Source: Geosiphon pyriformis uo1
Lineage: Eukaryota > Fungi > Glomeromycota
Direction: 5' to 3'
Assembly: GCA_016748015.1 (NCBI GenBank)
Contig: JAAOMT010000703.1
Location: 618,255 to 682,254 of the forward strand
Length of the DNA stretch: 64,000 nt
The position numbers were made by a program, and so were the translations under genes. Under the pieces are notes generated by a model. That model ran no database searches. It was not told the origin of the DNA and saw nothing but the letters and a program-made list of their open reading frames with translations. Shown in pieces: positions 10,984 to 64,000 of the stretch; position 1 is the first letter of the stretch, and every line of letters begins with the position of its first letter.

Positions 10984-13900
10984 GGTAACAATCACACCAA
11001 ACACAACAACTCTAGAGTATTATTAGTCAATTTACACTTACTGCAAACAAAAATTCAACATCCAAAATGGAATTGAAATTTTCAAGAAATCACTATACCA
11101 ATACATTGAAAATTGTATCAACAACTATTTTTTTGGAAACTATAACATTTCAGAAATCAGAAACAACCTCTACAATAATTTAATGCACTATTCACAATTG
11201 GAAATAGAAGACCTGAACAGTGAAACACTTGCTACCTACTTCCAAAAACTTAATTTTAATATTATTGAGTATTGTGAAGAAAAATACCCAGTACAATTCA
11301 AATACTCTCTTAATTTTGAATCAGAAACAGAAACAAGCAACAAAGGCAAACAAAAAGTGGAACAACACTCAAAAACCACTTCAAATACTCCAATACTATC
11401 AAAGACAACTGCCAAACACTTGCAAACCCCAGAACAAGAAACCAGTACTAGATTCTTACTCTCAGTCATCCCCTTTTCAATTTCACTTGCTCGATTACAA
11501 ACACCAAATTCACTACTTAACCATTTCTTCAGACCAGAAGATTTTCAGTCACTGAGAAATCCTACTCAACAGCAGGAACTCATATCAACAAGCACCAATA
11601 TTATTGATTACTTACAGGAAAACGAAAGTAATCATTCAGAAAACTTGGAAAGTAAAGAAACTGAATCAGAACAAGAAAAAACCACAAAAAATGAAGAAGA
11701 AATGACCATGGCTTATATTGCAAAAGTCCCAGAATTCACTGGTGAAGATAATGATACCAGCCCTTAAGAATGGCTCGAAAAAGTCCAGAAAGCAGGAGAT
11801 ACAAATGGTTGGAATGCAGCAAAAATGCTCAAAGCAATTCCATACTTTCTCTAAAGAACTGCAGAAGAATGGTTTGAAAACTTAGAAGAACTATTTAGAG
11901 ACTGGCAAGCATTCAAAGATGCTTTCTTACAACAATTTACTGACAACAACACCTCTATTACTCTCCACAATTACTTTCACAATATCAAACAAGAAACATC
12001 TAAAACTGTCATGACCTATCTTGAGAGATTTAACAAACTTCTTTGACAAATTTGACAATTGGAAACCAATGAATACTATTCCAATACTCAGATTCTGGAT
12101 CAGTTTATAGCAGGATTAAAAGACAAATTGATTAAAAAAGTCTGTCCACATGCACTAGCAGACTTAGCAACTGTCATTAGACATGCAAAGAACTATGAAA
12201 TGGCAATGAAAGAAGCAAATCACACCAAACTTGTCAACCTAGCTATTAAAGAAACCAGCTCAGCAGCTAAAGAGAAGATAGACCAACTTACAAAGAAAGT
12301 TGAAAGCTACTTTACAAACCAACAACAACAGCAGCAACAACCACAAAGATATCTACCTCCACAATGACACAACCAAAACAATTTTGGATCACTATCCAAT
12401 AACCAAACTCAAAATTGTTATTATTGTGGAATTCCAAAACATTAGAAACAAGATTGCAGAAAATTACAGAGAGACCAGCAAAACAGGAATAATTAACATT
12501 ACTCTTCACTACAACAATCTTATTATCAATTACCACTACCAACTTATTACCCACCAAAACCACAAAATCAAAACAGTTACTATCAACCAGCTTTACAACC
12601 AATTTAGCAACAATATTAGAAACCTTTACCAATTTAGCAATATCAGACACCACCCACTCAACAATATCAAGTACCAGCCAGAAAATTAATCCAACAAAAC
12701 CAATTCACATCACAAAACCGTTTTTTAACAAACAACAACAGATTTAATCACAATAATTAATTAGTTCCTCGAAATTCTGTTCAACAAAAACCCACTTAGT
12801 TTCACACTCAACCCAGTTATTTAACAATGCAAGAAGAATCGGATTTTCAACAAACTGCACTTTCTGAAGATGAAATTGCAGCATCAAAATCAAACCCTTC
12901 TAACAATACTATTCTACCAGCTCAAATTACCCAAAATGCCAACCTTTCAGATATATTTCCATTCGAATTTGAAGCAAATAAATCACCATTCTTGCTTAGT
13001 AATACAACAGCTAATGAATAAAAAGTTATCACTGCCATGTACACTAAAGCTACAGTAGAAGGAAAACCCATCCGATTAATTCTAGACAGTGAATCAGCTG
13101 GGAGTATTATCATCTACCAGTTAATACAACAGCTTCAAAAAACTGTTAACAGACCAGCCCAAACAGTAATTGTTACAACAGATAATATGAAAAAGACACC
13201 AGTAAGAAAAATTGATAATTTCCCATTCACCATTAATAGAATCATCATTTTAGTCAAAGTTCTAGTCATGGATGCACCCCAATATCAAGCTTTGATTAGA
13301 AATAATTGGCTTCTTAAGACCAATACAAACTTAGACTGGAAAACTCAAGAACTAAAAATCTCATACCAAGGACAATACATCATAGTACTTGCTACTTGTA
13401 GAACTTTCAACAAATGATCAGAAAAAGCCCCAGTATTTGAATTTGAAGAGGAAAAAGAAATGCCACTCACTGAAACTTACATGGCTTTTGGATCAACATT
13501 TAATTGGACTGAAGAAACAGAACAAGAGATTTTTGAGAATGGAAGAAAGTTAGGCACTCTACACCAGAACCACAAAAAAACCTATTATACATCCCACTCA
13601 AATGCAAAGATTGCAATAAGAAACTTTCATCTATGAGAGCTTATATTTCTTCAGAAGAGGAATATAAAACTTGCACTTGCTACTTCTGTAAAGCATGTTA
13701 TAGAGAACGATTTGGATCCCCAAAAAGAAGTGAAAAATAAGACAACACTCTTTGTCTTACATGTAAAGATATGCTATCAGAAGAATACAACTGGATTGAT
13801 ATTGCAATAAGGAGAGGAGTATGTAACCAAACCTGTCAATATGCCCTATCAATTTTGGAAAAAGTGAAAAGAGGAATACCATTTAATGCAACATACAACA

Positions 13901-15071: not shown

Positions 15072-15647
15072 TTTGGTGCTCTCTGTAAAGTATAATCTTA
15101 CAGAGAACCAGCACCATCAACAATCATCCAAAAGTGGCAGAATTAGAAATCATAGAGACAAACCATTTAGGATTTGCCAAATTCTTATTTCAACAGTACA
15201 GTCAACAATTAGGATTGAACAATAATCATTTTCTAGCAGAATCAGTTATAAAATCACAGATTGCTTAGAAGAAACAGTTAACATTGAATCAGCAAGGGAA
15301 AACTTTTATACAAAATTATTTCAACATACCAGCTTACCAAGAAACTACAGTTTTGCACCAATTATTAGGGAAATTAATCAAGCTATTAAAAGGTATACAC
15401 AACAACAATTCCCTATCACCTATGTAGATAAAGGCAAAGGAAGATTGCAAACCCCAGTAGTAACACCAAAACAAATCCAACTACCCAATTGGAAGAAAAC
15501 TCAAGTTGAATTATCCACCAATCTATCATATCATTATATGCCCAGAAGTGCCATCAATATCTCATCAACAGACATGTCTACATCAATCTTTGGATGCTTC
15601 TCATTTCAAAGTAAACAACAAAAAACAGAGTTATTAAGATCATATGA

Positions 15648-16637: not shown

Positions 16638-18974
16638 TTTAGTGCTCTTCCATAGAAATAACACAGCAACAACAAACTTCAAAGTGGTGACCACACCAGA
16701 CACAACAACTCTAAAGTATTATCAGCCAATTTACATCCATTGCAAGCAGAGATTCAACATCCCAGATGGAATTGAAATTGTTGAAAGAACACTCTACCAA
16801 TATATTGAAAACCATATCAACAATTATTTTCTTGGAAATTACAACATTTCAGAAGTGAGAAGCAACCTCTACAATAATTTAGTACACTATTTATGATTGA
16901 GAACTAAAGACCTTAATAGTGAAACACTTGCCACCTATTTTCAAGAACTCAATTACAACATTATCAAGTATTGTGAAAAAAAATACCCAGTACAGTCTAA
17001 ATACTCTTTTAACTTTAAATCAGAAACAGAAACAGATAACAAAGGCAAACAAAAAGTGAAACAACACTCAAAAACCACTCCAAACACTCCAATACTACCA
17101 AAAACAACTGCCAAACACTTGCAAACACCTGAACAAAAAACCAGTGTCAAATTACTACTTTCTATCACACCATTTCCAATTTCACTTGCTCAACCACAAA
17201 CACCAAATTCACCATCTAACCATTTCTCCAGACCAGAAGATTTTCAGTCACCTAGAAATCCTACTCAACAGCAGGAATCTATATCAACAAGCACTAATAT
17301 TATTGAATACTTGCAGAAAAATGAAAGTGATCATTCAGAAAATTTGAAAAGTGAAGAAACTGAATTAGAACAAAGAGAAGCCACAGAAAACAAAGAGGAA
17401 ATGACAACTGCTTACATTGCAAAGATTCCAGAATTCACAGATGAAGATAATGATACCAGTCCTCAAGAATGACTTGACAAAGTTCAAAAAGCAGGAAATG
17501 CAAATGGTTGAATTACAGCAAGAATGCTTAAAGCAATTCTCTACTTTCTCCAAAGAACAGCAGGAGAATGGTTTGAAAATTTAGAAGAACCATTTGAAAA
17601 CTGGCAAGCATTCAAAGATGCTTTTCTACAACAATTTACTAACAACAATATCTCTATCACTCTCAGAAACCATTTTCACAATATCAAACAAGAAACATCT
17701 AAAACTGTTATAACCTATCTTAGAAAATTTAACAAACTTCTCAAACAAATTCGACAATTGAAAACCAATAACTACTATTCTGATGCTCAAATTCTGGATC
17801 AATTTATAGCAGGGTTAAAAAACAAACTGATTAAAAAAGTCTGTTCACATGCTTTAGCAGACTTAGCAACTACCATTAGACATGCAAAGAATTATGAAAT
17901 GGCTATGAAAGAAGCAAACTACACCAAACTTGTTAACTTGGTTATTGGAAAAACCAGCTCAGCAGCTGAAGAAAAGATAGACCAACTCACAAAGAAGGTT
18001 GAAAGCTATTTTACAAACCAACAACAACAGCAGCAACAACCCCAAAAATATTAACTACCACAGTGATGTAACCAAAACAACTTTGAACTACCATCCAACA
18101 ACCAACCTCAAAATTGTTACTATTGTGGAATTCCAGGACACTGGAAACAAGATTGCAGAAAACTACAAAGAGACCAACAAAACAGAAGTAATTAACGTTA
18201 CTCTTTACTACAACAATCTTATTACCAACCCCTATCACCAACTTATTATTCACTGAGACCACAAATTCAAAACAGCTATTATCAACCAGCTTCACAACTA
18301 ATTTAACAACAATATCAGCAACCTTTACCAATTCAGCAATTTCAGACACCACTCACTCAACAATATCAAATACCAGCAAGAAGATTGGTTCAACATAACC
18401 AATTCACACCCCAAAATCAATTGCAGAGTAACAACAACAGAATCAATCTAAATAACCAGTTGGTTCCCCGAAATTTTGGTCAGCAAAGACCCAATCACTA
18501 TCACACTCAACCCAGTTATCTTACAATACCAGAGGAATCGGATTTTCAACAAACTGCACTTTCTAAAGATGAAGTTGCAGTACCAAAATCAAACCCTTCC
18601 AACCACATCATTCCACCAGCTCAAATTGCTCAAAATGCCAATCTGTTAGATATATTTCCATTTGAATTTGAAGCAAATAAATCACCATTTCTGCTTAGTA
18701 ATGCAGCAGTCAATGAACAGAAAGCAATTACTGCTATGTACACAGAAGCTACAGTGGAAAGAAAACCCATTTGCTTAATCTTAGATAGTGGATCAGCTGG
18801 AAGTATTATCACTTATCAGCTAATGCAACAACTCAAACGAAACATAGACAGACCAGGTCAAACAGTTATTGTCACAGCTGATGGTATGAAGAAGACTCCA
18901 GTAGGAGAAATTCATAATTTCTCCTTTTCAATTGATAAAATCATCATTCCAGTTAAAGTTCTTGTTATAGATGC

Positions 18975-24563: not shown

Positions 24564-24676
24564 TTTTTAATAAAAACACAAAAACAAAAATAGTAAATAA
24601 TTACAAAAAACACCCAAACCCAAAAACAAATAAAAACTCCATATCCAAAAAATAATTTTCTTTATTCTCTCTTTTC

Positions 24677-26334: not shown

Positions 26335-26338
26335 ACGG

Positions 26339-29300
26339 TGATTATTTTGAAAGATTTAAATCATGATTGCCAATGCCATCAGGATTCTGATCACCACTAC
26401 CACAGCCAGATTTCAGAACCACAAGTTCCTGGAAATTAACAGAATCGGAAGAAAAACAGGAAGAAGAAGAAAAAGAATCTAAAGATCAAGAATTTACTTA
26501 CCAGAACCCAATCCCAGAAAACCCAGAAATTGAAACTCCGAATTTTCAAATGCAGCACAATCAGAATGATCAAAACTCCAACATTAATAATCAACAACAC
26601 TTACCTTCAGTAATCATGATCAATCCACCCCCAGCTCCACCAATTGACAAACAGCAACAACAGTCACTTCAACCATCTCAACTACCACAGCAGCCATTTC
26701 TACAGCCACAACAACAACTTCAACAACCAAACTTGTATTCAATGGTCTATGCTCCAATAGCAAAACTCGAGAAATTTACCAGTGAAGAGGACAATGCCCA
26801 AGTATGGCTTAATGACATAGAAAAAGCCATAGCAGCTAATGAATAGAATGATGCCAGAGCCATGTAAGCCATCCCATATTTTCTCCAGGATACTGTTAAT
26901 TCATGGTACCAAAGTCTGGTCAACAAACCCCAAGATTTCAATGCATTCAAAATAGAGTTCTTAAAATACTTCAGCAACAATAACAGCATTAACAGGTTAG
27001 CAAACACCTTTACTACTATTAAACAAGAAAAAAATGAAGCAGTCACTACTTACTTAGGACATTTCCATAGGAATCTGCACCAGATCCAAGCCATTGACCC
27101 CAATTATTTCACAGTAGCCCAGATTCTAAATTAGTTTATTTGTGGATTATGCAGTAGCATCCTACAATGCATACATCCAATGCATCCTATCAATCTGCAA
27201 ACAGCCGTCACAAATGCCAGAGATTTTGAAACCACTGAACTCGAAGCTAACTACACCTAAGCCATTAATCTAGTAATGAATGGATCATTTGAATTGGATT
27301 CCAAACTGAAACAATTTAGTAATTCCATCAATCAGAAATTAGAAAGATACTTAGCTGACAATTGTGCAATTTATCAATCACTACAACAATGCAATAATTC
27401 CAGAAATGCAAATCATTTCCAGAATCAGTCACGTCTATTATTGTTGACCAATCAACAGTGACAACAGAAAATACATGTTTGCCACTATTGTGATAAACAA
27501 GAACACCTATAAATCAATTGCCACCATCACTTAAATAACCAATGATTGGGAAATCAATATCAAAATCCTGATTGCCAGTTTCAAATTCCGAATAACCCAT
27601 TAAACTCCAAACCATATCATCAAAATTACTTACCTATGACACAGCAGACACCTTATCAACCACCAGTATATCAAATGCTGATTTATTAACCGACAACACC
27701 AGTAATTTATTAGCCACAGCCACAACCCATTTATCAGCTGCAGTTTTAGGTAATATATCAGCCCCAACAAATTCAAACACTGCCACAAAACTTACTTCAA
27801 AACAGAACCCAAAGACCAAGATTGACCCAACAAAGCTGAAAATCATCGATGGTAGTCCACCAACCAATCCCCAGTTCTTCCACACAACCAGGAGAATTTT
27901 GACAATGGAATTTGGGCACTGGGTACACCCAAAACCCGAATTCCCAGAACTATTTAAGTCTCCTGGTTACCCCAAAAGACACTACTTTGAACAAACTAGA
28001 ACCAAATCAACCAGCAAAACCTACCTACAACATCCCACCAACAACCATTACTGAAGATAAATCCCTAGCTGCCATCTTTCTCTTTGAACTCAAGGAAACC
28101 ACAATAGTACTACTGTTCAGTGGAACCGCTCTAAAAAAAACCCCATTACGGCTATGTACATTAATGCCAAAGTTGATGATCAGTCTATCAAACTGATCTT
28201 GGACAGTGGATCAGCTGGCAGCATCATCACAAGACAACTCATAGACCAATTAGGTCACCGGATTGATTAAGCTGCCAGCACATACATCATCACAGCTGAT
28301 AGAGTGACCAAAACTCCAATTGGCAAAATTGATAACTTCCCGATTGAGATCAATGGCATCATGATACTCATCAAAGTCCTTGTGATAGAAGCCACTCAGT
28401 ACTAAGCACTAGTTGGTAATAACTGGCTCACCAAAACAAATGTCATCCTTGATTGGACTACTCAGAAGTTGCAGTTCAGCCAAAACAGCCAACACACAAG
28501 GGTACCAGCAATGTGTGGCCATTTCAAACCCAGCAGCATTATGCCAGTCCCACTAATCAAGTTTAAGGAAGAGGAAAGGAAACCAACATGGGAGACATAT
28601 CAAGTCTCATGGGCTGACAAAAACCACAACAAGCTGCCACCAATACTATTATGGGATGACAATGGAAAGAAAAAACAAAGAGAAGAACTTACCTAAGAGA
28701 CTGATGATCTGACCTAGACCAACAATAACAAAAATGAGCTGACACCAAACTGGGAATAGAAAAAAGAAAACAATAAAGGAAAGAAAAAAGAGAAAAAAGA
28801 AGAAACAACAACCATCAACACCATTTCTTCTAACTTCTACACTTACATTATACCACCATGATCTACCTATCATCGACCAAAACTTATATGCATTGATTGT
28901 GGCAAGAAATTGTCGTCAATAGATACATGTTGTGGTGACGACGAGGAATATGCAACAGCAACCAAATTCTATTGCCATACATGTGTCATAGAAAGGTTTG
29001 GACGACCAAAGAGGCAAAGAAAATGAGACAACTAACCTTGTCTCACTTGTGAAAAAACTCTCTTGGATGAAGGAATGTGGAATGACATTCCAGAGTGAGG
29101 AGGAATGTGTAACAAATCGTGCCAATACACGATTCTAATTAGCGACTGGATAAGAAAAGGGACACTAATAGAAGCAGCCTGGAGAAGAGCAGTACAATGC
29201 TTGAACAGTTGTCCACATGATGATGACAAGATCTGGCGAATAGCACTTGCAAAAATAAAAGAAGTGACATCCGAAGAAATTAGGGAGATCAAAAACAGCC

Positions 29301-33393: not shown

Positions 33394-33453
33394 AATCAAA
33401 CAATAAAAAAGTATATAAAGACACAGTATACATGACAAAGGCAACCAAGAAAA

Positions 33454-34093: not shown

Positions 34094-34960
34094 TGTTACT
34101 CATAAAAAGAAAACAGATATAGAAAATAGCAGACCAATAAGAGAATAGTATTTAGCATGTGAGCACATTGCTCAGCAATATAGAGCAATATCAGAAATTA
34201 TGGCACATTGTTTAGCAATGTAGAGCAATGTCAGAAAACATGACACATTGTTCAGCAATGTAAGTATTGCTTAGCAATATGAGCATTGCTCAAGAAATCA
34301 TAGCACATCGCTTGGAAATGTGAGCAATTTCATAGAACATCAATTATGTATATATAGCAATAGCATTAGAAGTAGAAAAAGCAGAATCCTTTAGTTAGAA
34401 ATCTTCCATCCACAAATATTAAATAAATAAATCATCTACTATTCAAATTCACTCTCCACTATCAACACTTCATGTTGATAGTAATTGATACTTAACTACA
34501 CTGGAACAATAGCTCTTGATTATGGTTATTGACAAGATACTAACTTGTATATTGTCTTGACTTTTTTTTTTATTTTTTTTTATTTTTCTTTTGTTTTTTT
34601 ATTTTTCTTGTTGAATACTAACTGATTAAGGATTAAAGTGCTAAGTAATTGACATCACAGATAGTCTGGTAAAAGACCCAGAAATAAGGGTAAAATTATA
34701 TATATATTATTAGATAGCTTACCAAAAAAGCACAAATGCCAGAATAAATCTGGCCACCAAGCTAAGAAAGAAATTGGGAAAACAACTTGAGAATACAACC
34801 ACCATCAATCTTAAAAGATCTCTGTCCATTATACAAAGAACTTAACTCTAAAACCTTTAGATACAATTAACATACTAGTATTACCAGCCTTATCAAGATA
34901 TTGAGCACCAAATTACGGATTTGTTATTTGATTTAAGACCCCAAATAATCATCTGTAACA
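34094..34960 (+). repeat. D 3' LTR (867 bp)
   Basis: PPT aaaagaggaga-taa, then tgttact...tgtaaca. Confidence 0.94.
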
Positions 34961-42332: not shown

Positions 42333-45300
42333 ACATATTATCAGAATTTATATTATTATCAACAGCAAAACCTACTATTATCAAAGTTCTATTCTAAAAT
42401 AATCAAAAAAAATTCAAACTAATAAGAATCTATGGCAATTATTTTAAAGAATATAAGTTATAATTAATGATATTATAAAAACTTTAATTATTATTACTTC
42501 AACCTAATTTTGGATTTATTAGTAATTAGGCAAACACCAATTCAAAAAAAAAAGACAGTGATCAAAAAAATAATAGGCAAAATCTAATTCCAAATAAACT
42601 GAAAATACAAGCTCCAATTGTTTAAACTCAGCAAAATTCAAACAATCTAAACTCTGCTGTTATCTAATAAAAATTAACAAAAATTAAAAATAATATTATT
42701 ATAATATATTAACTAATTATTAAATAATAGTATAAATAGTACAGATCAATAAATAAAATTAAAAAATGTGATATATACATGATAGTATGCAAAATATGTA
42801 CAAATATATCTAATTTAATGCAATCACAAACAAATAAACCAAAAGCACTTATAGTCAAACAGAAGATTTAATAGCTTAATAATTATTTATTAATTAGTTA
42901 AAATAAACATAATTATATATATAATAATTTTTTAATTAGAAAAAAAACAGACAAAGAAAAAAAATAATAAAGAATAAAAAATTAATTAAATAAAATAAAA
43001 TAAAATAAAAGTAAAAAAATTAGATTATAATTTAAAAAAAACTAAAAAATATGTTCTTTAAGCTTTGTATTATAATATTTACTAATATTAAGATTAGTAA
43101 AATTAAAAATTTTCTATTTTTATAATTAGGTCTTCTACAAATAACTGAAAGAGCCATTATTTTCTTTTATTATCACTTTTCCATTAATAAAAAACAGTGG
43201 TAAAAACATTTAATACACTAATAAAAACATAAATAAAATCCAAGCTTAACAAAATTAAAAACACATTAAAAGAATATTAAATACATGAAATTATCTAAAA
43301 ATTACTTGTAATAATATTTTGGCCAAAATTAACAGTCAACTTAAAAATCTGAAACAAATTTTTTATATTTTTGAAAAATAATTTTTAATTAAAATTATTT
43401 TACAAATACTAAATTTGTTGAATTTTACTTTTTATTTTAATCTTTTTTGAATTTATTAAAAATAAAATACTGCTTTATTGCAAGCAAAAAAATACAGATA
43501 TTTGGTATTAATATAAGATAAAAAAAGTATTTTCACAAAAAGCTTAAAGAAAGACACAATTAGAAATATAAAAATACAACAAAAATTCTTCTTGAAAGAT
43601 TAGTATAGCAGTAACTACTAACAATTTTAACAGAAACATTATGTTACACACCAAATTTAATAACAAAGACATTTATCAAAAAAATTTATTTAATATCTAT
43701 TAGAAAGTTAAAAAAAACTCACTGAATTAACTTTTAGATTCTTAAATAAAAAAATAATAGTAATATATTAAATAAAAATTCAGCAAAAATTAAAAATGAC
43801 ACTAATTAAAACTAATATACTTATTCTCATATCAAAATTAGATAATTCATTATATTATTGCTTAATCTAAAAAACCATAGAAATTAATTATAGTACAATT
43901 ATTAAGAAGAAAATAATCTGTAATATTTGGTATTTACTTCAAGATTCAATTTTAAACTATCTAAGCTACTTAAATTTTAGCAATAATTAATTGCATAAAT
44001 TAGTAGATTAAAGTAGCAAAACTAATAATAATTACTAATTTTTTTAGCCAAAACTTATATTATCAATGTTAAAAAAGATTGAAATTACTTAATAATTATT
44101 TTTTAACTGAATTAATTTTTAATTATTATGTGCATTATTAAATTCAATATTTACTTGGGCAAAGTTCAGAATCCCAAGAACAAAAATAAAGCTTATATCA
44201 AGAATTAATCTAACATATTATACTATTTAATACACAATTATTCCCAATAACTTTAATATAAATACATTAAGAAATTAAGAAATACATTTAGCAAAGTTTT
44301 CCATTCATCTTTAACAAAAACAAGAAAGATAGTAGTAATTAAAATAACTAACAAAAACCAAAAACTCCAGTATAAATACCCTAATATAAACACTTTATTA
44401 AGGAATTGTAAATTAACAACAAACCTTAATTTTATTATATAAAAAACTTTAAATTATATTATTAGAAGCCTTATTTTATTATTTGTTATTGAATAATTAA
44501 ATTAATATACTGCTAAGAGCTGCATTTTTATTTACCACAAAAATAACTTTCCAAATTTTTAACTATGTTCATATTTTATTTAGAAAAAAACTCTTTAAAA
44601 AATCTATTTTAGGAGAATATTTATTGTGATTTTTAAACCTATTTTCTCTACACCCAAACTTTCAGATTGCTTAAGAACCTAAACCTAAACCTAAATTTGA
44701 GTTTAAACTTAATCCAAAAAACAGAGTGCCAAAAAAAAAATTTTCAAGTAAATTGAAACCAAAATTCATAGTTTTTTCTGTTCAAATATCTGTAAATTCT
44801 CAAAAAATAATTGTTCTCTATATCACAAAATTAACCAATTTTACTAAAAAAAAAAAAAATGCTTATATTTAAATTGAAGAAGCATAAAAAGCAATTCTAG
44901 CAAATAATTAAAATAAGACTTGTAGTCTTTAGACTTTATTATTCTTCTTAAAAAACATAGTTAAATCTTGATATTAGAATTTAAATTCTAAACCTAACAC
45001 TTTTACATAGTTTTAAGACACATTTTTAGAATATTTCTGCAATTTCAATACTATTATCAAACTTCAAAATAAATTTAATACTAATAAACAACAGTCCAGT
45101 AAAACAATAACTAAATATTTTGATAGGTTTAATCATATTTTATGACAGATTAGAATCATAAAAGACAACTATTATAGCTTCTCAAATTCTTAATCAATTT
45201 GTAAAAAAATTAAGAAGTAGTATCTTAAAATGAGTAAGACTATAATACTTAAAAGATTTATTTCAAGCTGTTATATTAGCTTAAAATATTAAATTAGTCA

Positions 45301-47698
45301 AAAAAGAAGCTAATCACAATAAAATAATAAACTTGGTAATAAATAATAATAATACCAAAAAATTAGAAAACAAAATTACTCAACTCAAAGAGAAATTATC
45401 TTAGAAGATGAAAAATTATCTTGTTAATATTAAGTCTCAAATACCAAACTAATATTAATTATAATAACAATAAAACTAAACACTCTTTTAAGATTACAGC
45501 TATTAAAATCCAAATAGAAACCAATAAAATATACTAATGTATTATTATTATTAAAAGTACAAATATATTAAAGCCAAATGCTGATTACTATAGTTTCATT
45601 AAAATTCATATGAAAAAAATTCATAAAACCCACTTTTTAGCAATTAATACATAATACTTTAAAATTAATATTTAGTATTAATTTAATAGTATTCTTAGCA
45701 ATAATTATTATAGCAACCAAATTCAGCTCAGCCATAATACTTATCTCTATTACAACAATTATAACAATTACCAACTCCCAGATCATATTCTTAAAACTTA
45801 AATTAAAGAAAAAATTATCCACTTTTAAATTCAAACTTTTTGGATTAATCAACAACAAACACAATAATATTACAAAATTCTAATCAAAATAGATAATATA
45901 ATATTTTTATATATCATCAACAAAAATTTTTTAACTTATTCAAACCACAAAATTTCTATAATATAATGTCTTATAAAGATCAAAACATATACAATATTAA
46001 AAGTATTATTAATATTAATAAAAGTACTAGCATGATTTCCCTTATAATCATTACCAATAATAAAATATTAACTGTTATATTTTTTTTTAAACTTAAGAAA
46101 AAAAAATCCATTCCTATCTTGTTTAATAGAATTGTTTTAAATAAAAATAAACCAATTACTATTATGTACACTAAGATAAAAACAGATAATAAACTTATTA
46201 AACTAGTCTTAAATAGCAAATTAATAAAAAACATTATTATTTTTTAATTTATAAACCAATTAGGTCATTAAATTAACAAAAACATTAACACTTTTATTAT
46301 TATTATTAATAGAACCAAAAAAATACTAATCGAAAAAATTAACTTTTTTCTCTTCAACATAAATAGAATAATCATCTTTACTAAAATATTATTTATGGTA
46401 TTACTTATAGAAATTTAGGAATTCTTAATAAGAAGATAAAGTAGTCAATTAAAACTAAACATAGTAAAAGAGAAATTTTAGGATTTCTCTTAAAAAATTA
46501 CAAGATTCCAGAAATTCCAAAATTTCTGGCTAAAAAAATTAAAAAATTCAAGAAATCTTATATAACATTAATTATATATATATAGTAAGAGTATTAGAAG
46601 CAGAAAAGTTAAAATACATTTCAAAATTCAGTTCAAAATTAATATTTACAATAAATTAATTATCCAATATCCCTTTTTTTAAAAAGTAATTTTCTACAAC
46701 TTAAAGTAGAATCAATTTACACATCAATAAAAATATCAATTATTACTTAAACTCATGTTATTGTTGTTTGATTAAGAAATAATTAATTGCTTTTATTCTA
46801 TCAATATTCTATGTTGATAGAATCTAATATTTAATTATATTGAACTAATAATTCTTAATCATGGTTATTGACAAGATACTAATTTTTTATTTTTTTTTAT
46901 TTTTTTTTTATTTTTATTTTTATTTTTATTTTGTTGTTTTACTAACTAATTAAAAAAATCAAGTACTGAGTAATTTAACATCAAGAATAGTCTGGTAAAA
47001 AACCCAAAAATAAGAATAGAAATTTAAGAATAGCTTATTAAAAGAACATAACTTTTAGAATAAATTAACTATCATGCTAAAAAAAAAATTCATAGAATAA
47101 ACTTTTGAAAAAGTACTAAAACAACTATTAAATCTCTGTCTATTATACAAAAAACTTAACCAAAACCTTCAGATCACAAAATTTTTTAGATATTGTCACT
47201 ATTAACAAGCTATTAAGCACCAAATTATAGGTTTGTTATTTGTATTAACACTCCAAATAATTATTTATAATAATGAATACAACTCAATACTAAGCACTAA
47301 TTAAAAATAATTGATTAGAAAAAGCAAATGCTATTTTGGATTAATTAACTCAAAAGTTATAACTAATATATCAAAAACAATATACACAAGCACTTATTAT
47401 GTGTAAATATTTTAAAAGAGATTTTTACACAAACAATTTATCTTAATTTAAATTTGAAAAAATATTGAAAACAAAAAGCCATTAAAGCATATTAAGCTAA
47501 GTGGAATAAAAACAATCATAAAAAACTATTACTTGTTTCTATGTGGACTAATAAAATCTCTAACTTTATACTATCTTACTTTTCTTGTTTCTAATATCAC
47601 CAAAGTTATTAACCAAGATTACAATATTTAGTTTGCTAGAAAAAACTATCTTTTATAATGACTTGTGTTATTTTATACAAGAATAATCAATAAACTAC
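42333..47698 (+). mobile_element. Highly decayed LTR retrotransposon relic(s) E
   Basis: Gag-like traces near 42420 (YGNYFK) and 44850-45420 (ILNQFVK, KKEANH); protease trace near 46190; Cys-domain trace near 47630; possible decayed LTR end plus PBS at 43918-43935. May be more than one element. Confidence 0.65.
46399..47272 (+). repeat. Old solo LTR (B/D-related) in the relic protease
   Basis: Decayed ends tattact...tataata; R/U5 homologous to B/D LTRs; TSD atgg(46395-46398)/atga(47273-47276); host VM-D-x-TQY-x-AL restored on removal. Confidence 0.8.
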
Positions 47699-48593: not shown

Positions 48594-49580
48594 TGTTACC
48601 AGACAAAATTAGAGATATTATTTAGCATGAAATTATCGTTATAATTCTCATCATTAATTAACATATATTATTGTTTCAAATTATCACTTATTACATTAGC
48701 AAAATGTCCAAATTATCATTTAATTAATAACCCAATTTGTATATGACACAAATGTAACCTAATTGTGATGATCAATCATACAATACCCCGAACTATGTAA
48801 CATTCAAAAAGTTTGCTGAAATTTGTAGAAATTTGCCGAAATAATTGATAGTTCACCAAAATATCTAATAGTTCGTAGAAATAACTTGTAGTTTGCCGAA
48901 ATGTATCTTTAGTTCAGCGAAATTGTAGAAAATAGCAAAGTTCGAGTTCATAAAATAGTGTTACAACAAGTTGTATAAAAAAAAAGTGTTTCTCTTTGAG
49001 AAAATGTATCTTACTTCAGATTAAAAACAATTAGAATAACCCTTTACACCCAAAAGACAAATAAATATCAAATAATTTGAAAAGCCAAATTCTTAAATTA
49101 TTTCCCTTGAAATTAACCAATTCCTACTAACAGTTTGAAATTGACTAGCTACTAATTTCGGTAAACTGTTAAAGCACTTCCAGACCTGGATCCGAAATGA
49201 CTTCCATAAATTATCAGTTTTACTTTTTTTTTTACATTTCTTTTATTCTCTTTCTTTTCTTATTATAAATCATTTAGGTAGCCTACAGACAAGAATTCCT
49301 GTAGAAAAGTTGACTTTCACAGCAAAGTAACTATACATTTTTAGTGAGCTTCCAGATGAGCAATTCCTGGAAAAGAGTTGACGTTTACTACAACATAACT
49401 ATACAAAGTAACTAGCACGGAATTGGCCATTCCACTTATAAACCCAGCAGTTCAAATTATAAGAGATAATTTGAAGATAAATTTAGTTACTGGAGGTTTA
49501 ACCACATCCAGAAAACGAGAATCCACAGCAAACAGACATCAACAACATTTAAGAAAAGAGACCAAAAACCTCTGGTAACA
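48594..49580 (+). repeat. C3 5' LTR
   Basis: tgttacc...ggtaaca; TATA-like gtataaaa near 48973. Confidence 0.96.
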
Positions 49581-49624
49581 TTTGGTGCTCTCCCACAGAA
49601 ACAATACAGCAAAACAACTTCAAA

Positions 49625-52600
49625 GTGGCAACCACACCAGACACAACAACTCTAGAGTATTACCAATCAATTTACACCCACTGCAAGCAAAGATTCAACA
49701 TTCCAGACGGAATTGAAGTTGTCAAGAAATCAGTATACCAATACATTGAAAACCAAATCAACAATTATTTTTTTGGAAATTACAATATCTCAGAAGTTAG
49801 AAGCAACCTTTACAACAATTTAGCACATTATTCACAGTTGAAAACTGAAGACCTTAACAGTGAAACACTTGCCACTTACTTTCAAGAACTAAATTTTAAC
49901 ATTATCAAGTACTGTGAAGAAACATATTCAGTGCAGTTTCAATACTCTATTAATTTTAAATCAGAGACAGAAACAAGCAACAAAGGCAAACAAAAATTGA
50001 AGCAATACTCAAAAACCACCCCAAATACCCTAATACTACCAAAAACAACTGCCAAACACTTACAAACACTTGAACAAAGAACCAGTTCAAAACTTCTATT
50101 TACTATCACACCTTTTTCAGCTTTACTTGCACAAACACAAACACTTAATTTACCCTTGAATTGATTTGCAAGACCAGAAAATTTTACATCACTCAGAAGT
50201 CCCACCAGACAGCAAAAACTCCTTTAAACTAGTTCCAATCTTCTTGATTTTCTAGCTAAAAATCAAAGTGAACACTTTGAGACAACAGCAAACGAAGAAA
50301 ATGACTCTAAAATAACTGAAAAAAAATCAATAGACAGTGAAAACAAAGAAAACAAAATGACAGTATACATTGCAAAAATCCCTGAATTTAATGGAGAAGA
50401 TATTGAGACCAGTTCCCAAGAATGACTCGACCAAGTTACTAAAGCTGAAGATGTAAATGGATGGAATGTTACCAGAATGTTAAGAACAATTTCCTACTTT
50501 CTCAAAGGAACAGCAGGAGAATGTTTTGAAAACTTGGCCACTTCATTCAATGATTGAGACACTTTCAAAGCAGCCTTCTTTAAACAGTTCACCGACAATA
50601 ATATCTCCATCACCCTTCGAAATCATTTTCGCAATATCAAACAAGAACCCTCCAAATCTGTTATGACTTATATTGGGAAATTTAACAAACTTCTCAGACA
50701 AATTTGCCAACTTGAAACTAATGATTATTATTCTGATGCTCAAATCTTGGATCAATTTATCACTGGTTTAAAGGATAAACTGATTAAAAAGGTTCGCCCA
50801 CATGCACCAGAAGATTTAAACTCTGCCATTTAGCATGCAAAGAGATATGAAATGGCCATAGAAGAAGCCAATCGTACAAAACTCGTGAATTTAGCCATTG
50901 GAGAAACCAGCTCAGCAGCTGAAAAAAAAATTGACCAACTTACAAAGAAAGTTGAAAACTATTTCACCAACCAACAACAACAGCAACCCCAAAGATATCA
51001 ACCACCCCAAAGACAGAATCAAAACAACTTCACATCACTTTCTAATAACCAGCCTCAGAGTTGCCATTACTGTGAAATTTCTGGCCACTGGAAAAAAGAT
51101 TGCAGAAAGCTACAATGAAACCAACAAAATAAGAGTAATCAATATTACTCTTTACCACAGTAATTTTATTATCAACTACCACCACCAGCTTACTATTCAC
51201 CAAGACCCCAATATCAAAGTAACTATTATCAGCCTGCCCCACAGCCAATTCAACAGCAATACCAACAACTACCCACACAACATTATCAAGTGCCTGCTCG
51301 AAGATTAATCCTGTAAAATCAATTTACACCACAAAACCAATACCAAGTAAACAACAATAGAATCAATTCAAACAACCAATTAGTTTCCCAAAATCCAGCT
51401 CAGCCAAGACCCACTTATTATCATACTCAACCTAGCTATTTTACAATACCTGAAAAACAGGATTTTCACCATACTGCACTCTCAGAAGGTAGAGTTGCAG
51501 CATGACAACAAAACTCTTCCTATATTCTTACCACAATCTCACCAGCCAGAATTGCTGAAAACACCAATCTTTCAGACATATTTTCTTTTAAGTTTGAAGC
51601 AAATGAGTCACCATTTCTGCTCAGCAATGTGGCCGCCAACAAACAAAAAGCAATCACTGCTATATACACTGAAGCAAAAGTCGAAGGAAAGGCAATTCGC
51701 TTGATCCTAGACAGTGGATCTGCTGAAAGCATCATTACCTACCAGTTAATGCAACAGTTAAAGAGAAATGTTGACTGACCAGCTCAAACAGTAATTGTTA
51801 CTGCCAATGGCATCAAAAAGACTCCAGTAGGAGAAATTGACAATTTTCTGTTTACTCTTGATAGAATCACCATTTCAGTCAAAGTTCTTGTAATAGATGC
51901 GCCCCAGTACTAAGCTCTCATCGGAAATGATTGGCTTCAAAAAGCCAATGCTAATCTGAATTGGGAGATACAAGAGTTAACAATCTCCTACCAAGGACAA
52001 CATGCCCGGGTACCTGCCACTTGTAGTACATTCAACAAATATTCCAAAAAAGCCCCGGCTTTTGAATTTGAACTGGAAGAAGAACAGCCCATCATTGAAA
52101 CATTTGTGGCACTTGGATCAACCTCCAATTGGGCCGATGAAACTAAACAACAGTACTTTTCAACAAATGATTTTCTTGAAACAGAAGAACCAGTAACAAC
52201 TGGATGGAATGTCTCCTATTCAAAACCAGAACCACGAAAACAACGCCCCTACATTCCACTCAAATGCAAAGACTGCCACAAGAAACTCTCTTCAATGGAA
52301 GCCTGCATTTCACCTGAAAAAGAATATGAAAATCATACTTGTTATTACTGCAAGGCTTGTCATAAAGAATGATAGGGCCATCTAATAAAAAGAAGCAGAA
52401 AATGGGATAACACCCCTTGTTTGACTTGTGGAGATATGCTACTAGAAGAATGCAATTGGATTGATTTAGCAATGAAAGGAGGAGTCTGCGATCAGACCTG
52501 CCAATATGCTTTATCAATTTCAGAAAAAGTAAAAAGAGGAACACTCTTTGATGCAGTATACAACAGTGCTCTCAACAAACTGTACTATTATCCTCATGAT

Positions 52601-55257
52601 GCCGAAATGATTTTCGACCTAGCAATGGCTTTAATTAACAGAGCCACTCAAGAAAATGTTCGTCAAATGAAAGAATCAGAATACATTGCATACACTTTTG
52701 AAATCGCTGGATACAACTACAAAGATGAAATAGAAGTATATTATCAAATTGCCAGTCACACTTATCTGACCAAAGAAGCTCAAGCTCAATGGCTAGAGCA
52801 AATAAACGTTAAATTGTGTAAAGAATGCATAATGCCCTGCGATAAGCAATGGTGCTCTGAATGCTATGCTCTTAGCATTTTTCTGTCCAGTGAAAATGAT
52901 GAAAGCGAAATTGAATTTGGAGAACCTGAAGCAACAGAAGAAATTGAAACAACACCCATCTATTTTATTAAAAGTCAGTCTGCCTTACAACTCAAATACT
53001 TTAACAACAATAGACAAGGAATAAAACCTGAAAAAGCACATGAAATTGATGCTGGATATGACCTAAGATATCCAGACAAGAATACTCTTGTTCTCAAACC
53101 CAAATCTCTCACAAAAATCAACCTCAAAATTGCACTCAAAATCTCGCCAGGAGCAATGGTTCAAATCGCCTCCCGGTCCTCTCTGGCAAGCAAAGGAATC
53201 AATGTCAGAAGAGGAATAATCGATTCTGGATATACGGGAGACATTACAGTAATGCTTCAAAATGAAACTGACAAACCATTCAAGATCGACCATGCTGAAA
53301 AAATTGTCCAAGCTATTTACCTACCCCTAATCAACATTTCGAGTTTGCAACTAGTCAATCAAAGAGAACAATTAAGAAAAAACAATAGAAGAACCCAAGA
53401 TTTTGGTTCAACTGGACGATTCACAGTTTTAGTTAATATAGCTCTTAACACACAGAATGAATCCTACCAGATTTTCAGATTTCCACAACCAATTACCATC
53501 TCACCCTTTAGAGAACATCCAGAAATTTACACCTGTCCAAAGCCAACAACCACACAACAAATTTTTGAGCCCAATGAACAAATTTGCTTGGAACATAATA
53601 TTTTGATCCCAAACATTTATATTCCAGAAGGAACAAAAAAAGTCTGAGTTACTTTTTACAATACCAACAATTACCCTATAGTTCTATTAAATAACTTAGA
53701 AATTGGAGTCATTTACAGTAACATTTTTCAACAAGAACTACTCTAGACAGTTCCCAATTTTTCGGAAATTATTAGACATTCACTACCAAAAATCAACCCA
53801 AATCCTAGCTCTGAAAACTACCATGTTGTCATAGAAAAACTATTTTGAATCAACATAGGACAACTTGAACCACAACAACAAAACCAGCTCAAAGAGCTAA
53901 TTGTAGAATTTGCCAATATCTTTGCCAAAAACAACAATAACTTAGAAAGAACCAATTTGGTCCAACACAAAATTTACACAGGAGATGCCAAACCAAGAAG
54001 ACAACAAGCATATCGAGTTGCTCCAGAAAGCCACCAATTTATTCATGAAAAAGTACAACGAATGCTTAACAATGAGCTTATCCAACTCTTTATGAGTCCT
54101 TGGGCTTTACCTGTAGTACTAGTTAAAAAAAAAATGGAAAGATATAATTTTGTGTTGACTATTAACAACTCAACAGTATTACAATTGGAGATGCCTACCC
54201 CCTTCCCTAAATTGATGACATGTTAGATGCCCTTGGAAAATCTAAATACTTTTCAACACTAGATTTAGAAAGCAGTTACTGGCAAGTTGCTATAGATCCC
54301 AAAGATCGCCCCAAAACAGCATTAACCACTTAAGGTGGATATTATGAGTTCAATGTAATGCCCTTCAGATTATGCAATGCACCAGCAACGTTTCAGAGAT
54401 TAATGGATGTTGTATATCAAAGGCTTCTTTGGAAGTCAGTAGTCGTTTATCTTGATGATACTGATGTTTATTCTTCATTGTTTAAATTATACTTAAAACA
54501 CCTACGAGAAGTTTTTCAATAATTATGAAAAGCAGGACTAAAACTCAACATCGAAAAATGCTACTTTGGAAAAACAAGCTTGGCCTTTCTTGGTCATATT
54601 GTTAGTAAAGATGGAATCAAACCGGACCCTGGAAAAATTAGCACTGTTAAAAACTTTAAAACTCCTCAAAACACTACAGAACTAAGAGGATTTATAGAGT
54701 TAGCCTCCTATTATTGGAAGTTTATCAAAGGATTTTCAGAAATTGCAAAACCTCTCAACCAGCTTACCACCAAAAATGTCGAATACAAATGGACTGCTGA
54801 ATGCCAAAATGTATTTGAAATCCTCAAAGAAAAACTAATGACAGCTCCAATTCTCGCCTACTCAGATTTCAGCAACTGATTCCGATTAACAACAGATGCC
54901 TCTTATATTGCCTTTGGTGTCATCTTATCACAATTAGATAACAACAAAAATGAGCGAGTAATCACTTATGCTAGCAGAACATTAAAACCAGTCAAGAAAA
55001 ACTATTCTGCCACAGAACTAGAAACAGCAGCCATAATCTGAGTTCTACACCACTTCAACCTTTATCTTAGGCCTAAAGAATTCGATATTATTACTGATAA
55101 TATTGGACTCAAATGGCTTCAGAACAAAAATACTCAGCTAAACGCAAAACAAACCTAATGGACAAGATTTCTAGCAAACTATCGATACATAGTACATCAC
55201 AAACCAGGAAAACTCCACATCAATGTTGATTGTCTCTCCAAAATAAGACAAGATTAG
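49625..55257 (+). pseudogene. C3 Gag-CCHC-PR-Cys-dUTPase-RT-RNaseH
   Basis: Fragments at 49625, 50852, 52106, 52421 and 53957 share one frame; CHYCEISGHWKKDC, LILDSGSA, AGYDL/ASRSSL/IIDSGYTGDI/FGSTG, YLDD; one frameshift at the A-run near 54130. Confidence 0.94.
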
Positions 55258-55308
55258 AAAACACAAAAACCAACACTCAACTTAACCAACCAAAACAGCC
55301 AACAAACA

Positions 55309-56694
55309 ATGAATTCGAAAAACTACAACAATCTCAAACAATATTTGGAAATATTAACAATCCCAACAGATTGGTCTCCAGATAAAAAACATCGACTACA
55401 ACAACAAGCCAAACAATATTTTCTACACAACAACATTATTTATCATCGAAATTTCAAAAACCCAGACAAACCACTCAGATTAATACAAGAACAGGAAAAA
55501 GAGACTATATTATACAACATACACTCAGATCTTTTATTAGCACACTTTGGAAAAAACAGCACCATCCAAAGAACACTAGAATACTACTTTTGGCCTCGAA
55601 TGAGAAAAAACATTCATGAATATGTCGAATCTTATGATAGTTGTCAAAGAAGAGGAGGAACACGCCCTACTGAATCATTAAATCCAATCAAAGTTGGACA
55701 ACCCTTCGACTGAGTTGATATTAATTTAGTCGGACCACTATCTATCACCACTTAAGGAAACCGTTATATTGCAGTAGCTGTAGACTATCTTATTAAATGG
55801 CCCAAAGCCAGAGCCATTCAATGAGCAGATGCGAAATTAGTAGCAAATTTCATCTATGAAAACATCATTTGTAGACATAGATGTCCAATTGAACTTTTAT
55901 CTGATCAGAGAACACACTTTGTAAACAACCTGATATAAGAAATTTGCGAATGATTCAATGTCAAAAGACCTCTGTCTTTGCCCTATTATCCACAAACAAA
56001 CAGACTTGTAGAATGTTTTAACAGAACATTGTGTGAGTTATTAGCCAAAGTCTCAACCGATTTTGAGCAAGAATGAGATATCTTTATTCTATCAGTGTTA
56101 CTAGCATATAGAACACTAAAACAAGATACCACAAAACACATATCATTTGATTTAACTTATGGAAGGACAGCAACATTACCAATTAGTTTTACAGTGGAAA
56201 CATACCCAACACAACCAATCGATAAAAACAATTTCCAGAAAACACTACAACGAAGAGCTTACACTCTGCTTAGTACATTGGAAGGAAAATGATGAATAGC
56301 AGCAACTTATATTAAACATTCTCAAGCTCAACAAAAAAAAAGACATGACAACAAATTACCACCTATTACCAATGAATTTAAAGTTGGAAATAAAGTTCTC
56401 TTACACAGAACTAAAGCTGAAAAACAATGGAGTAGAAAATTTGAAAATAAATGGGATGGACCATTCTTTATTCATGAAATTCTAGACAATGGATCATATA
56501 AGCTAAGATTTGATGACAAAATCCTAGCAAAAGTTGCATATGGAGATCATTTGAAACACTATAATTCCAGAAACAATTCTGAACCATTAATTCCACAAAT
56601 TGGCACACATACCCCTTTAATCAATCCCGAAGATATTCCCTGGAATTTAGAACCAATAGTTGTTATTGAACAATTTCCCAACTTAAACACTTAA
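55309..56694 (+). pseudogene. C3 integrase, separate ORF
   Basis: ATG 51 nt after TAG; MNSKNYNNLKQYL.., HSD...H, WDGPF, NLEPIVVIE. Confidence 0.92.
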
Positions 56695-56816
56695 TTTAAA
56701 TTTATTATTATAGTTATCTTCTTATAATTTAGAAACAATCTTACAAAAACAAAACAAAAATAACATAAAAACTCATACACCAAAAATAATTTTCTTTTAT
56801 TTTCAAATCTTTTATA

Positions 56817-57533
56817 ATGACTATTCCTCAAAACATTTAACAATTATCCCAAAAACTAATGTTAGCTTTAAAAACAATATCCGAATTATCTATTACTGTT
56901 ACTGAAAACCACATTAATTATATCCAAACAAAAGTAGTCACAAATTTAGCCCCAAATTCACGAAAATATCACCCATATAAGAAGAACACAAGAAGTTATT
57001 CTGGAATTCACCTGCCAGAACTTTTAAAGCTTGCTTTAAGAGAAAACTTAATGCTCACTCCTATTAGTATTCCACCAAATGCTACTATTTAACAAAAACT
57101 TCAACTGTGTTTTAATAAAGAAAACTATGACTATACTCCAATATATAGATATTTCTACATTGGAAAAACACTTCATGAACAAAAATGGGAGCTTACAGTA
57201 GCAAACCTCACAAAAGAAGCTATTCGGAAACAACTCCACAATAAATTCAAGACAACAACTAGACCTACAAACAGTCATTATAAATTAAGAGCTGCTCTTA
57301 GACTTTATGACCTATTTCACTGTAAAAACGTTCTACAAAACCCAATTTTACAACCTTTGAAGATTCAATACATTGAAAAGCTTACAAAACTGAAATTTCA
57401 ACAATTTTTAGACCAAATCTCTTCAATAATTTTGGATTATTATCTGGAAATTACAGACAGTACTTGGACTTCGACAGAGCTCAGTCTTGAGGAGGAGGTT
57501 ATGTTACCAAACAAAATTAGAGATATTATTTAG
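56817..57533 (+). pseudogene. C3 ORF3, unknown function
   Basis: Homologous to C1/C2 ORF3; ends inside the LTR. Confidence 0.8.
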
Positions 57534-58489
57534 CATGAAATTATTGTTATAATTCCCATCATTAATTAACATATATTATTGTTTCAAATTATCACTTATT
57601 ACATTAGCAAAATGTTCGAAATTATCATTTAATTAATAACCCAATTTGTATATAACACAAATGTAACCTAATTGCAATGATCAATCATGCAATACCCCGA
57701 ACTATGTAACATTCAAAAAGTTTGCCAAAATTTGTAGAAATTTGCCAAAATAATTGATAGTTCACTGAAATATTTAATAGTTCACAGAAATAACTTGTAG
57801 TTTGCTGAAATATATCTTTAGTTCAGCAAAATTGTAGAAAATAGCAAAGTTCGAGTTTATAGAATAGTATTACAACAAGTTGTATAAAAGAAAAACTTCT
57901 CTCTTTGAGAAAATGTATCTTACTTCAGATTAAAAACAATTAGAATAACCCTTTACACCCAAAAGACAAATAAATATCAAATAATTTGAAAAGCCAAATT
58001 CTTAAATTATTTCCCTTGAAATTAACCAATTCCTACTAACAGTTTGAAATTGACTAGCTACCAATTTCGGTAAACTGTTAAAGCACTTCCAAACCTGGAT
58101 CTGAAACAATTTCTATAAATCATCAGTTTTACTTTTTCTTTTACATTTCTTTTATTCTCTTTCTTTTCTTATTATAAATCATTTGGGTAGCTTACAGACG
58201 AGAATTCCTGTAGAAGAGTTGACTTTCACAGCAAAGTAACTATACATTTTTAGTAAGCTTCTAAATAAGCAATTCCTGGGAAAGAGTTGACATTTACTAC
58301 AACGTAACTATACAAAGTAACTGGCATGGAATTGGCCATTCCACTTATAAGCCCAACAGTTCAAATTATAGGAGATAATTTGAAGATAAATTCAGTTACT
58401 GAAGGTTCAACCACATTCAGAAAACAGGAATCCACAGCAAACAGACATCAACAACATTTAAGAAAAGAGACCAAAAACCTCCAGTAACA
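57502..58489 (+). repeat. C3 3' LTR
   Basis: Matches the 5' LTR. Confidence 0.96.
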
Positions 58490-62640: not shown

Positions 62641-62847
62641 TTAATTTTATTATTATTTTAACTATAATTAATCTTAGCTAATTTAAAAATTTTAATAAAT
62701 ATAATAGTTTTTTATAAAAAATTAAAATAAATAGAACATATTTTTTAAAATATTGTTTTTAAGATCTTAAATAAATTAATTTAAAATTTATAATATTTTG
62801 TATTAATAACTTTGATTAATAATAAAACCCTTTGTCTCCTTAATTTT

Positions 62848-64000
62848 ATGATCATAACTAGAATAAAGAGTAAAAAAACTGTACCTGATATCTTTCTTAA
62901 GATATTTTATAAAATTTCAACCAGAAAAGCTCTCTCTGTTGTAGAAGCAATTAAGCAGAATGTTTTAAAAGCCTTCCCTTTACTTAGTAATCATGAAAAG
63001 CTGCCTTTGGTAGCTACTAAAGCAACTTTTTCATCTTTGGCTGGTTTTTTACTAGTCAAAGTTTCTTTAAAAAGACACACTTGGGTTAGTTCTAGTGTTG
63101 TCTTTATCCCAACTAAGAGCCCAAAAGTTTTTAATAATAAATCTGTAAACAAGCTGGTCTTCCTTTTTCTTGCTTCAACACCTAGTGCTACTAATACTAC
63201 TTCTTCAAAAAATATGGTCAAAAAGACCAAAAGTTTAGGAAAGTGAGAACAGTTGCTTGCCTCTGCTATTGTTACACTGAATCTTTTTATGATTTCCAAT
63301 AAGATCTTAGATAAGATCTCTATAGCATTATTTGGCACATTATTTAAGATGGGCCAAAATTAACTACTGGCTGTATTGCCTAATATGGTGTCTTTTGATA
63401 GATTATTGCCAGTTTTAGAAGCAAAACAATCATCTCTTGTGATGTTATTTGTTCTTAAGAATAGGGCTGACCAAATAGAAACTAAATCATCTCCTCCTTT
63501 GGTTTTTGGTGCTGTTACTAGTGGTGCTTGGGAAACTATTACTAGTTGTCAAAAGTTTGCTGGATGGATGGTCTCTATTCTGGTGCCTGGTGCTATTTTT
63601 AAGATTAAATTGGCTTATGTTAAAGCTGTTTTTCAGTTAGTACATGTTTTCTTGAGTGCAAAGTCAGTATTAAAAGACAATATAAAGCTGTTTTGTATGG
63701 AGTTTGCTTCTTAAGTGTCTTTGGAAGCTGTATTTTTGGTTGAACTTACAAGCTCTGTATATTTGGCCACCCTCAAAATTGCCAAGTCTTTGGTAATTTC
63801 TGAGTTTGGTTCCTCTTTTGCTGCTGTTGTGCTGCATGATGTGCCTTTAAGTGTGTTTGCTACTGATATTAAAACAGCTCTTAGTGTGTTTGGTGGTGTT
63901 ATTTATGTTGTGCTGAAGTCTGCTGGCATTTGACAGTATGTAATGGTTTATTTTAAGAAGTTGGACTTTGCTGTATCTGCTTTGAGTTATTGGTTAGTCT
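62848..64000 (+). mobile_element. Second LINE-like element, ORF1 5' part (runs off window)
   Basis: In-frame fragments 62812, 63376 and 63715; LHDVPL...ALSVFG..V..V.F resembles the IKKIPV...VLSEFG..IVEF (RRM-like) block of the opposite ORF1; T/G-rich sense strand. Confidence 0.65.

Follow-up and report, generated by a model that had tools for sequence, protein, structure and literature searches.

A conserved GTG codon as the candidate start of a longer Gag in Ty3/gypsy retrotransposons of Geosiphon pyriformis

Described non-AUG starts and the Geosiphon elements

Gag translation from a non-AUG codon has been described in a retrovirus and in the domesticated gene PEG10. MLV makes a longer glyco-Gag from an upstream in-frame CUG beside the AUG-started Gag, according to passages in PMC3542737, which also describe non-AUG starts as usually weak and part of leaky scanning, and GUG as capable of appreciable initiation that depends on A or G at -3 and G at +4. 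In PEG10, a mammalian host gene derived from a domesticated gag-pol, mutagenesis showed that an upstream CUG and an AUG are both used, the CUG adding 34 aa (passages in PMC2800197). Rice tungro bacilliform virus (RTBV) is a looser parallel: the weak AUU start of its ORF I is followed by about 900 nt of leaky scanning through an AUG-free stretch to the capsid ORF (passages in PMC5902531). The LTR retrotransposon Ty1 also makes a short form of Gag, p22, which corresponds to the C-terminal half of the protein and restricts transposition, and does so with a second transcript and AUGs (passages in PMC5408680). In filamentous fungi, conserved near-cognate codons serve to start N-terminal extensions (passages in PMC5487733). 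Our literature search, which covered only a minority of subscription journals and whose terms also missed known cases such as the glyco-gag CUG, listed no report of Gag starting at a non-AUG codon in a mobile LTR retrotransposon.

The window, by which we mean the whole 64,000-nucleotide stretch of Geosiphon pyriformis DNA that was analysed, contains decayed Ty3/gypsy LTR retrotransposons inserted within one another; almost all of them lie on the + strand, the nested elements mostly sharing one strand. Three copies of one family, C1, C2 and C3, supply all DNA statistics given below, which are not independent because the copies are related and decayed; C1 and C2 are 74-82% identical to C3. A second family, D, is represented by an element into which C2 has inserted and whose Gag picks up again at 26335. 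The third, A, was detected inside protein P0031, and the first part of the window holds its capsid region. C3 (48594-58489, flanked by a 4-bp ATGC duplication) encodes capsid, zinc knuckle, protease, dUTPase, RT, RNase H and integrase, with Pol in frame with Gag up to the start of RT. It is a dead copy, having in-frame stops at 50162 and 50225, where the family's commonest residues are Arg and Gln. The features that concern us, all on the + strand, are as follows.

48594..49580, +, 5' LTR of C3, 93.8% identical to 57502-58489, with TGTTAC...GTAACA ends
49004..49006, +, last ATG common to family C LTRs (ATG in 6 of 7 copies, ATA in the seventh), opening a 6-codon frame
49007..50356, +, stretch free of stable ATGs in every frame of the three-copy alignment (3' LTR part, leader and extension)
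49581..49594, +, primer-binding-site-like TGG motif directly after the LTR, the same in C1, C2, C3 and D
49625..49627, +, GTG at which long Gag putatively starts; A at -3, G at +4
49625..49924, +, N-terminal helical domain of about 100 aa, common to the three families by alignment and shuffles; helices from the predicted structure
49925..50356, +, low-complexity linker (P/Q/S/T about 40%), predicted disordered from pLDDT, with the stops at 50162 and 50225
50357..50359, +, first stable ATG (a Met/Ile-only column), at the start of the capsid domain; putative start of short Gag
50360..51115, +, capsid domain and CCHC zinc knuckle (PF03732, PF19259, PF00098), broken by decay stops
51506..56540, +, protease, dUTPase, RT, RNase H and integrase, from profile matches; broken
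57502..58489, +, 3' LTR of C3, from LTR identity, ends and duplication
16684..17403, +, C2 extension, with GTG at 16684 and capsid ATG at 17401
10985..11704, +, C1 extension, with GTA at 10985 and capsid ATG at 11702
15134..15641, +, 5' part of the D extension, with GTG at 15134, interrupted by the C2 insertion
26335..26744, +, 3' part of the D extension in the resumed frame, with capsid ATG at 26742

As read from their sequence, the Geosiphon elements appear to combine a non-AUG start upstream of an in-frame AUG start, as in glyco-Gag and PEG10, with an AUG-free stretch like that of RTBV. We favor a model, to which we assign a probability of about 0.7, in which initiation at the GUG together with leaky scanning would yield a long and a short Gag. 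The signature itself, a feature of sequence, is real, well supported in dead copies and conserved across three divergent families. The initial annotation had cited MLV and RTBV as precedents for two isoforms. The MLV parallel stands for the manner of starting only; that with RTBV fails on this point, since its AUU opens a separate ORF rather than a longer isoform and it relies on separate ORFs and a ribosome shunt (passages in PMC5902531). Unlike MLV, the Geosiphon elements have GUG in place of CUG and are fungal Ty3/gypsy elements rather than a gammaretrovirus; their extension of 240-320 aa has its own helical domain, and the AUG product begins at the capsid. The extension is not a glyco-Gag, as it lacks the hydrophobic signal segment of that protein: no signal or transmembrane segment was found in six proteins, whose best 19-residue hydropathy was 0.43-1.25. 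PEG10 differs in being a single host gene with a short, CUG-started extension, whereas the Geosiphon case involves multi-copy mobile families and a whole extra domain.

Assignment to Ty3/gypsy is supported by paired LTRs with TG...CA ends and a target-site duplication, by the order Gag, protease, RT, RNase H, integrase, and by a Ty3-type capsid and RT (PF19259, PF03732); among solved structures, that of Ty3 RT is nearest to the RT of a related element in the window (E 5e-75). No chromodomain was found in the ORF pieces scanned. The order protease-dUTPase-RT-RNase H-integrase is shared with Postia PosPlaTy3-5, and dUTPase also occurs in Tuber and Phanerochaete Ty3/gypsy elements (passages in PMC2864245, in which the term 'start codon' does not appear). 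Between protease and RT, C3 has a Cys/His-rich stretch at 52250-52900, without a Pfam match, followed by the dUTPase at 53027-53416; an element at 2293-3498 has a weak second protease-like match after its dUTPase. Between integrase and the 3' LTR, families C, D and A have an additional + strand ORF, some 170-200 codons long (24773-25384, and about 56800-57500, 38500-39200, 33400-34080 and 6282-6555). It ends at or across the purine tract and occupies the position of env, and its C2 copy has no Pfam match. At 60000-64000 the - strand holds a different decayed element, non-LTR-like by eye, with a 360-codon open frame at 61595-62677 that has no Pfam match. All four 4-bp target duplications have the form A-Y-G-N (ATGC, ATGA/ACGG, ATGA/ATGG and ATGC, flanking 48594-58489, 15648-26334, 9971-40162 and 18975-19767, respectively), which suggests a preferred insertion target, possibly containing ACG.

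LTR elements have expanded in the Geosiphonaceae (passages in PMC11952901), and families C, D and A may already be present in the element tables of Geosiphon genome papers. All 316 proteins among the matches listed by three homology searches are Geosiphon pyriformis hypothetical proteins, one of them identical to element D across the query; these are models that gene finders built on dead copies, in many cases by splicing past stops. A profile search of 1.84 billion proteins gave 399 matches. Among the 150 listed, 54 were already in our set and 96 were new, and 93 of the new ones fit the N-terminal domain of C or D (three do not). Searches of viral contigs and metagenome contigs returned no relatives, and a search with the leader pattern returned seven metagenome loci, none of them related by tblastn or blastn.

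Decay in these copies had been described as running G>A. Such changes are indeed present, but C>T changes are equally so, and the two together make up 191 of 200 LTR-LTR differences. In the paired LTRs of C1, C2 and C3, C/T and G/A differences occur in all cytosine dinucleotide contexts, beyond CpG. The pattern suggests heavy cytosine decay on both strands, RIP-like or methylation-driven. Its end state is seen at 43000-47300, where a far more decayed copy of a Gag-protease region has a G+C content of 17-20%. With decay running C>T and G>A, A is the derived state wherever G and A alternate.

The GTG codon as a family state

The motif AAAGTGG, reported initially in three copies, is present at 49625 in C3, 16684 in C2 and 15134 in D, and the first in-frame ATG that follows in C3 is, as had been stated, 244 codons on at 50357, at the start of the capsid. 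In C1, a fourth copy, the codon is GTA, at 10985. The reading frame does not open at the GTG as originally described: it remains open for a further 24, 16, 7 and 15 codons upstream in C3, C2, C1 and D. However, the spacing between LTR and GTG is 44, 45 and 46 nt in C3, C1 and C2, and because these spacers differ by single bases the three copies have no upstream frame in common. Translation should thus start at or near the GTG.

Proteins of all three families place Val at this site. The counts are Val 100, Met 10, Leu 3 and Ile 1 in family C (114 aligned of 120 listed), Val 34, Met 11 and Leu 3 in family D (48 matched of 76), and Val 61, Met 4, Leu 4 and Ser 1 in family A (70 matched of 120 listed), a Val majority that holds despite the preference of gene finders for Met. 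In family C the genomic pair is K-V 99 times and never K-M; five of the ten Met residues follow a residue other than Lys and mark gene-model junctions, and the other five begin the model. At a 2% threshold, the contigs of one sequencing run have no A at 49625, with A at 5.5% at 49627 and 2.7% at 49628; these percentages are summed contig depth rather than copy counts, and the contigs are possibly the window's own source. In all three families Lys is the usual residue before Val, and Ala comes after it (K-V-A). In D the preceding residue is Lys, Asn or Thr, all with codons that begin with A, such that the A at -3 is kept while -2 and -1 vary. With A at -3 and G at +4, the site is a conserved near-cognate codon, in frame and in strong context.

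The initial annotation had argued that a shared GTG is unlikely to be a mutated ATG, and the proteins and contigs bear this out, the family state being G rather than A. Met at the site in 10 of 114 (C), 11 of 48 (D) and 4 of 70 (A) proteins is what could be expected if the original start were ATG and the GTG copies mutant, or if the extension were non-coding. Against this, decay runs G>A, contig A is below 2%, the Met copies are scattered and the extension is under coding constraint (see below). In a tree of 48 D domains, Val and Met copies are sisters and Met needs 9 changes versus 9.9 with shuffled labels, in a tree that is poorly resolved (3 of 45 branches starred). We regard an ancestral ATG, or a non-coding extension, as barely credible.

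Insect gypsy elements make start codons for env by splicing, and this precedent invites another reading of the same bases, in which AAAG/TG serves as a 3' splice site. Joined to an upstream exon whose last base is A, it would yield A/TG, and the unspliced RNA would give short Gag from the capsid AUG. Such a junction accounts for both the conserved G-T-G-G and the ATG-free zone, gene finders do use the site (in five models of family C the Met comes after a residue that is not Lys, and three models have Leu), and a conserved A/GTGAGC near 49343 could be a donor. However, 10 of the 48 D proteins have Asn before Val or Met, continuous with the genomic leader sequence, and since Asn-Val codons hold no AG these copies have no splice acceptor there. 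AAG is moreover a poor acceptor, with which two CAG just upstream in C3 would compete. At the LTR end, the base before the donor is G in the inferred original state (CTGG and CCAG variants), so that joining would again produce GTG. Taken together, these data make a spliced start quite improbable. A GUG start would also account for many of the odd N-termini among the hypothetical proteins annotated over these elements, as gene finders add upstream exons to supply a Met.

Coding constraint and a helical domain in the extension

The extension is under coding constraint, as judged from transversions by codon position, from indels and from alignment across families. We used transversions because decay does not make them. 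Between C1 and C2, the extension has 2, 2 and 12 transversions at codon positions 1, 2 and 3 (P 8e-4), compared with 2, 1 and 10 in the capsid and a flat 18, 15 and 18 in the LTR. Comparisons of C3 with C1 and C2 point in the same direction and are not significant (Fisher p 0.12-0.14 for the extension and 0.48-0.49 for the linker). The extension has a single indel, of 12 nt, whereas the LTR and leader have many that are not triplets. Constraint is looser in the linker than in the N-terminal domain. Neither of the two outcomes that the initial annotation had set against its own reading, an ATG consensus at the site or an unconstrained extension, was found.

Across the three families the N-terminal domain is 23-29% identical, with z scores of 5.9-11.8 against shuffles, and homology begins at the Val; capsid identity is 40-48%, and the linkers are unalike. 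The extension occupies 240-320 codons before the capsid. Between start motif and capsid motif, distances of 244 and 240 are the most frequent in C and 294 in A; in D the distance is variable, reaching 337. The predicted structure has five helices over residues 1-100 (block pLDDT 66-94), the first at residues 7-24, followed by predicted disorder (pLDDT <50) between residue 104 and residue 179, where the model stops. Fold searches, the Atlas and a PDB sequence search revealed no relatives of the domain: Foldseek gave no match with E <0.001, Pfam gave nothing at its cut-offs, and the best VIA-align hit, a designed protein with Z 7.1 (rmsd 3.0, 99 aligned), lies within the helical-bundle background. 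The absence of an identified relative does not make the fold new.

We tentatively extend the model to a whole lineage of autonomous fungal LTR retrotransposons that would set the ratio of its Gag and Gag-Pol forms by a conserved GUG, with a minor long form that would supply the particle with a hitherto undescribed helical domain, used for instance to target membranes or chromatin. This extension of the model is doubtful. If it is true, these elements are an independently arisen retrotransposon counterpart of the long-Gag strategies of retroviruses, and their activity is tied to the start-codon stringency of the host.

The ATG-free zone and two forms of Gag

The stretch 49581-50300 of C3 had been described as free of ATG in any frame, and we indeed count none, versus 5.9 expected from 1000 dinucleotide shuffles (P ~0.001, the end of the stretch having been chosen post hoc); from 49581 up to 50356 there is one versus 7.1 expected. 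The only ATGs of C3 in 49100-50356 are at 49197, 49356 and 50301, leaving none in 49357-50300. These had been attributed to decay of ACG, an explanation that holds for 49197 (ACG in four of the six other LTR copies) and that the other two fit in part. At 49356 the column reads ACA/ATG/ATA, consistent with an original ACG that no copy has kept. The ATG at 50301 spans an Asn-Asp junction whose Asp column reads Asp 28 to Asn 32, a ratio well above that of most Asp columns, pointing to a decayed CpG as its probable source.

The three-copy alignment has no stable ATG in 49007-50353 (1,347 nt) versus 24 in 50354-51890 (1,537 nt). In the 729-nt extension alone there are none, versus the same 24 downstream (P 9e-5), and for stable out-of-frame ATGs the counts are 0 and 15 (P 0.003). 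Raw counts over C1-C3 are 7 in ~2,300 nt of extension versus 48 in ~2,320 nt of capsid. After 49004, the seven LTR copies have nine ATG columns, each with ATG in at most two copies, and eight of the nine show ACG, GTG or ACA in other copies; in the 3' LTR part alone, two ATGs versus 4.5 by shuffling is not significant (P 0.13). Met columns in the extension are of the types Thr/Met, Val/Met or Ala/Thr/Met, as decay of ACG, GTG and GCG would yield, and those at the capsid start show Met/Ile variation only, by subfamily. The first stable Met precedes the capsid motif by 3-4 residues in all three families; in D the match to the Ty3_capsid profile starts, at profile position 9, three residues after this Met. 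The absence of an intervening AUG is read from DNA in C, and mainly from in-frame protein columns in D and A. The D copy in the window is not itself ATG-poor (9 ATGs in 976 nt versus ~12 expected); seven of the nine are at columns with a non-ATG family residue and two are unexplained. Two extension columns of family A are rich in Met (Met 49, Thr 33, Ile 3; Thr 45, Met 26) and can be read as probable CpG decay.

Composition bears on a further alternative, in which the GTG is an ordinary Val codon within a motif conserved for its role in the RNA, beside the primer site, the long form starts at another near-cognate codon or several, and base composition accounts for part of the ATG deficit. The region has much A and little G, CAT and TAA fall short in the pooled extension about as far as ATG does (dinucleotide shuffles), and further in-frame near-cognate codons lie within 30 codons of the GTG. 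Yet in the capsid region of the same elements CAT is again depleted and ATG is not (68 versus 58.6 expected). Near-cognates upstream of the GTG are not in a shared frame, and those downstream have a pyrimidine or a weak context or would cut into the first helix. We consider a start elsewhere very unlikely.

How two forms of Gag could arise from one RNA follows from the model we favor. Scanning ribosomes would start at the conserved GUG part of the time, giving a long Gag composed of helical domain, linker and capsid, and the remainder would scan on to the capsid AUG and give short Gag. Given the usual weakness of non-AUG starts, short Gag would be the more abundant form. Ribosomes that have to reach the capsid AUG by scanning would make the loss of out-of-frame ATGs matter, and because Gag and Pol share one frame both starts would also give Gag-Pol. 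We speculate that the extra domain, present in a minority of capsid subunits, could act like a matrix protein or in targeting. A stimulating hairpin just downstream of a non-AUG start is common and is not required; the 80 nt after the GTG in these decayed copies contain no stable one (-1 to -6 kcal/mol). If the model is right, it adds another way for LTR elements to make two capsid forms and names a new Gag domain.

Long Gag could also start at the GUG without any leaky scanning, with short Gag coming from an internally started RNA, as in Ty1 p22, or not being made at all, and the capsid Met being incidental. Ty1 does make its truncated Gag from an internally initiated RNA (passages in PMC5408680), and the gene DAP5 can be started solely from a GUG (passages in PMC5666671). 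Such an arrangement needs no purge of out-of-frame ATGs over 730 nt (0 versus 15), and it poorly explains why the first stable Met lies at the same place before the capsid motif in three families. We thus think it unlikely, and prefer GUG initiation with leaky scanning.

The 3' ~400 nt of the family D and A LTRs (34523-34960 and 7034-7440) also lack stable ATGs, and their 5' parts have several. The ATG-free part may mark the transcribed leader.
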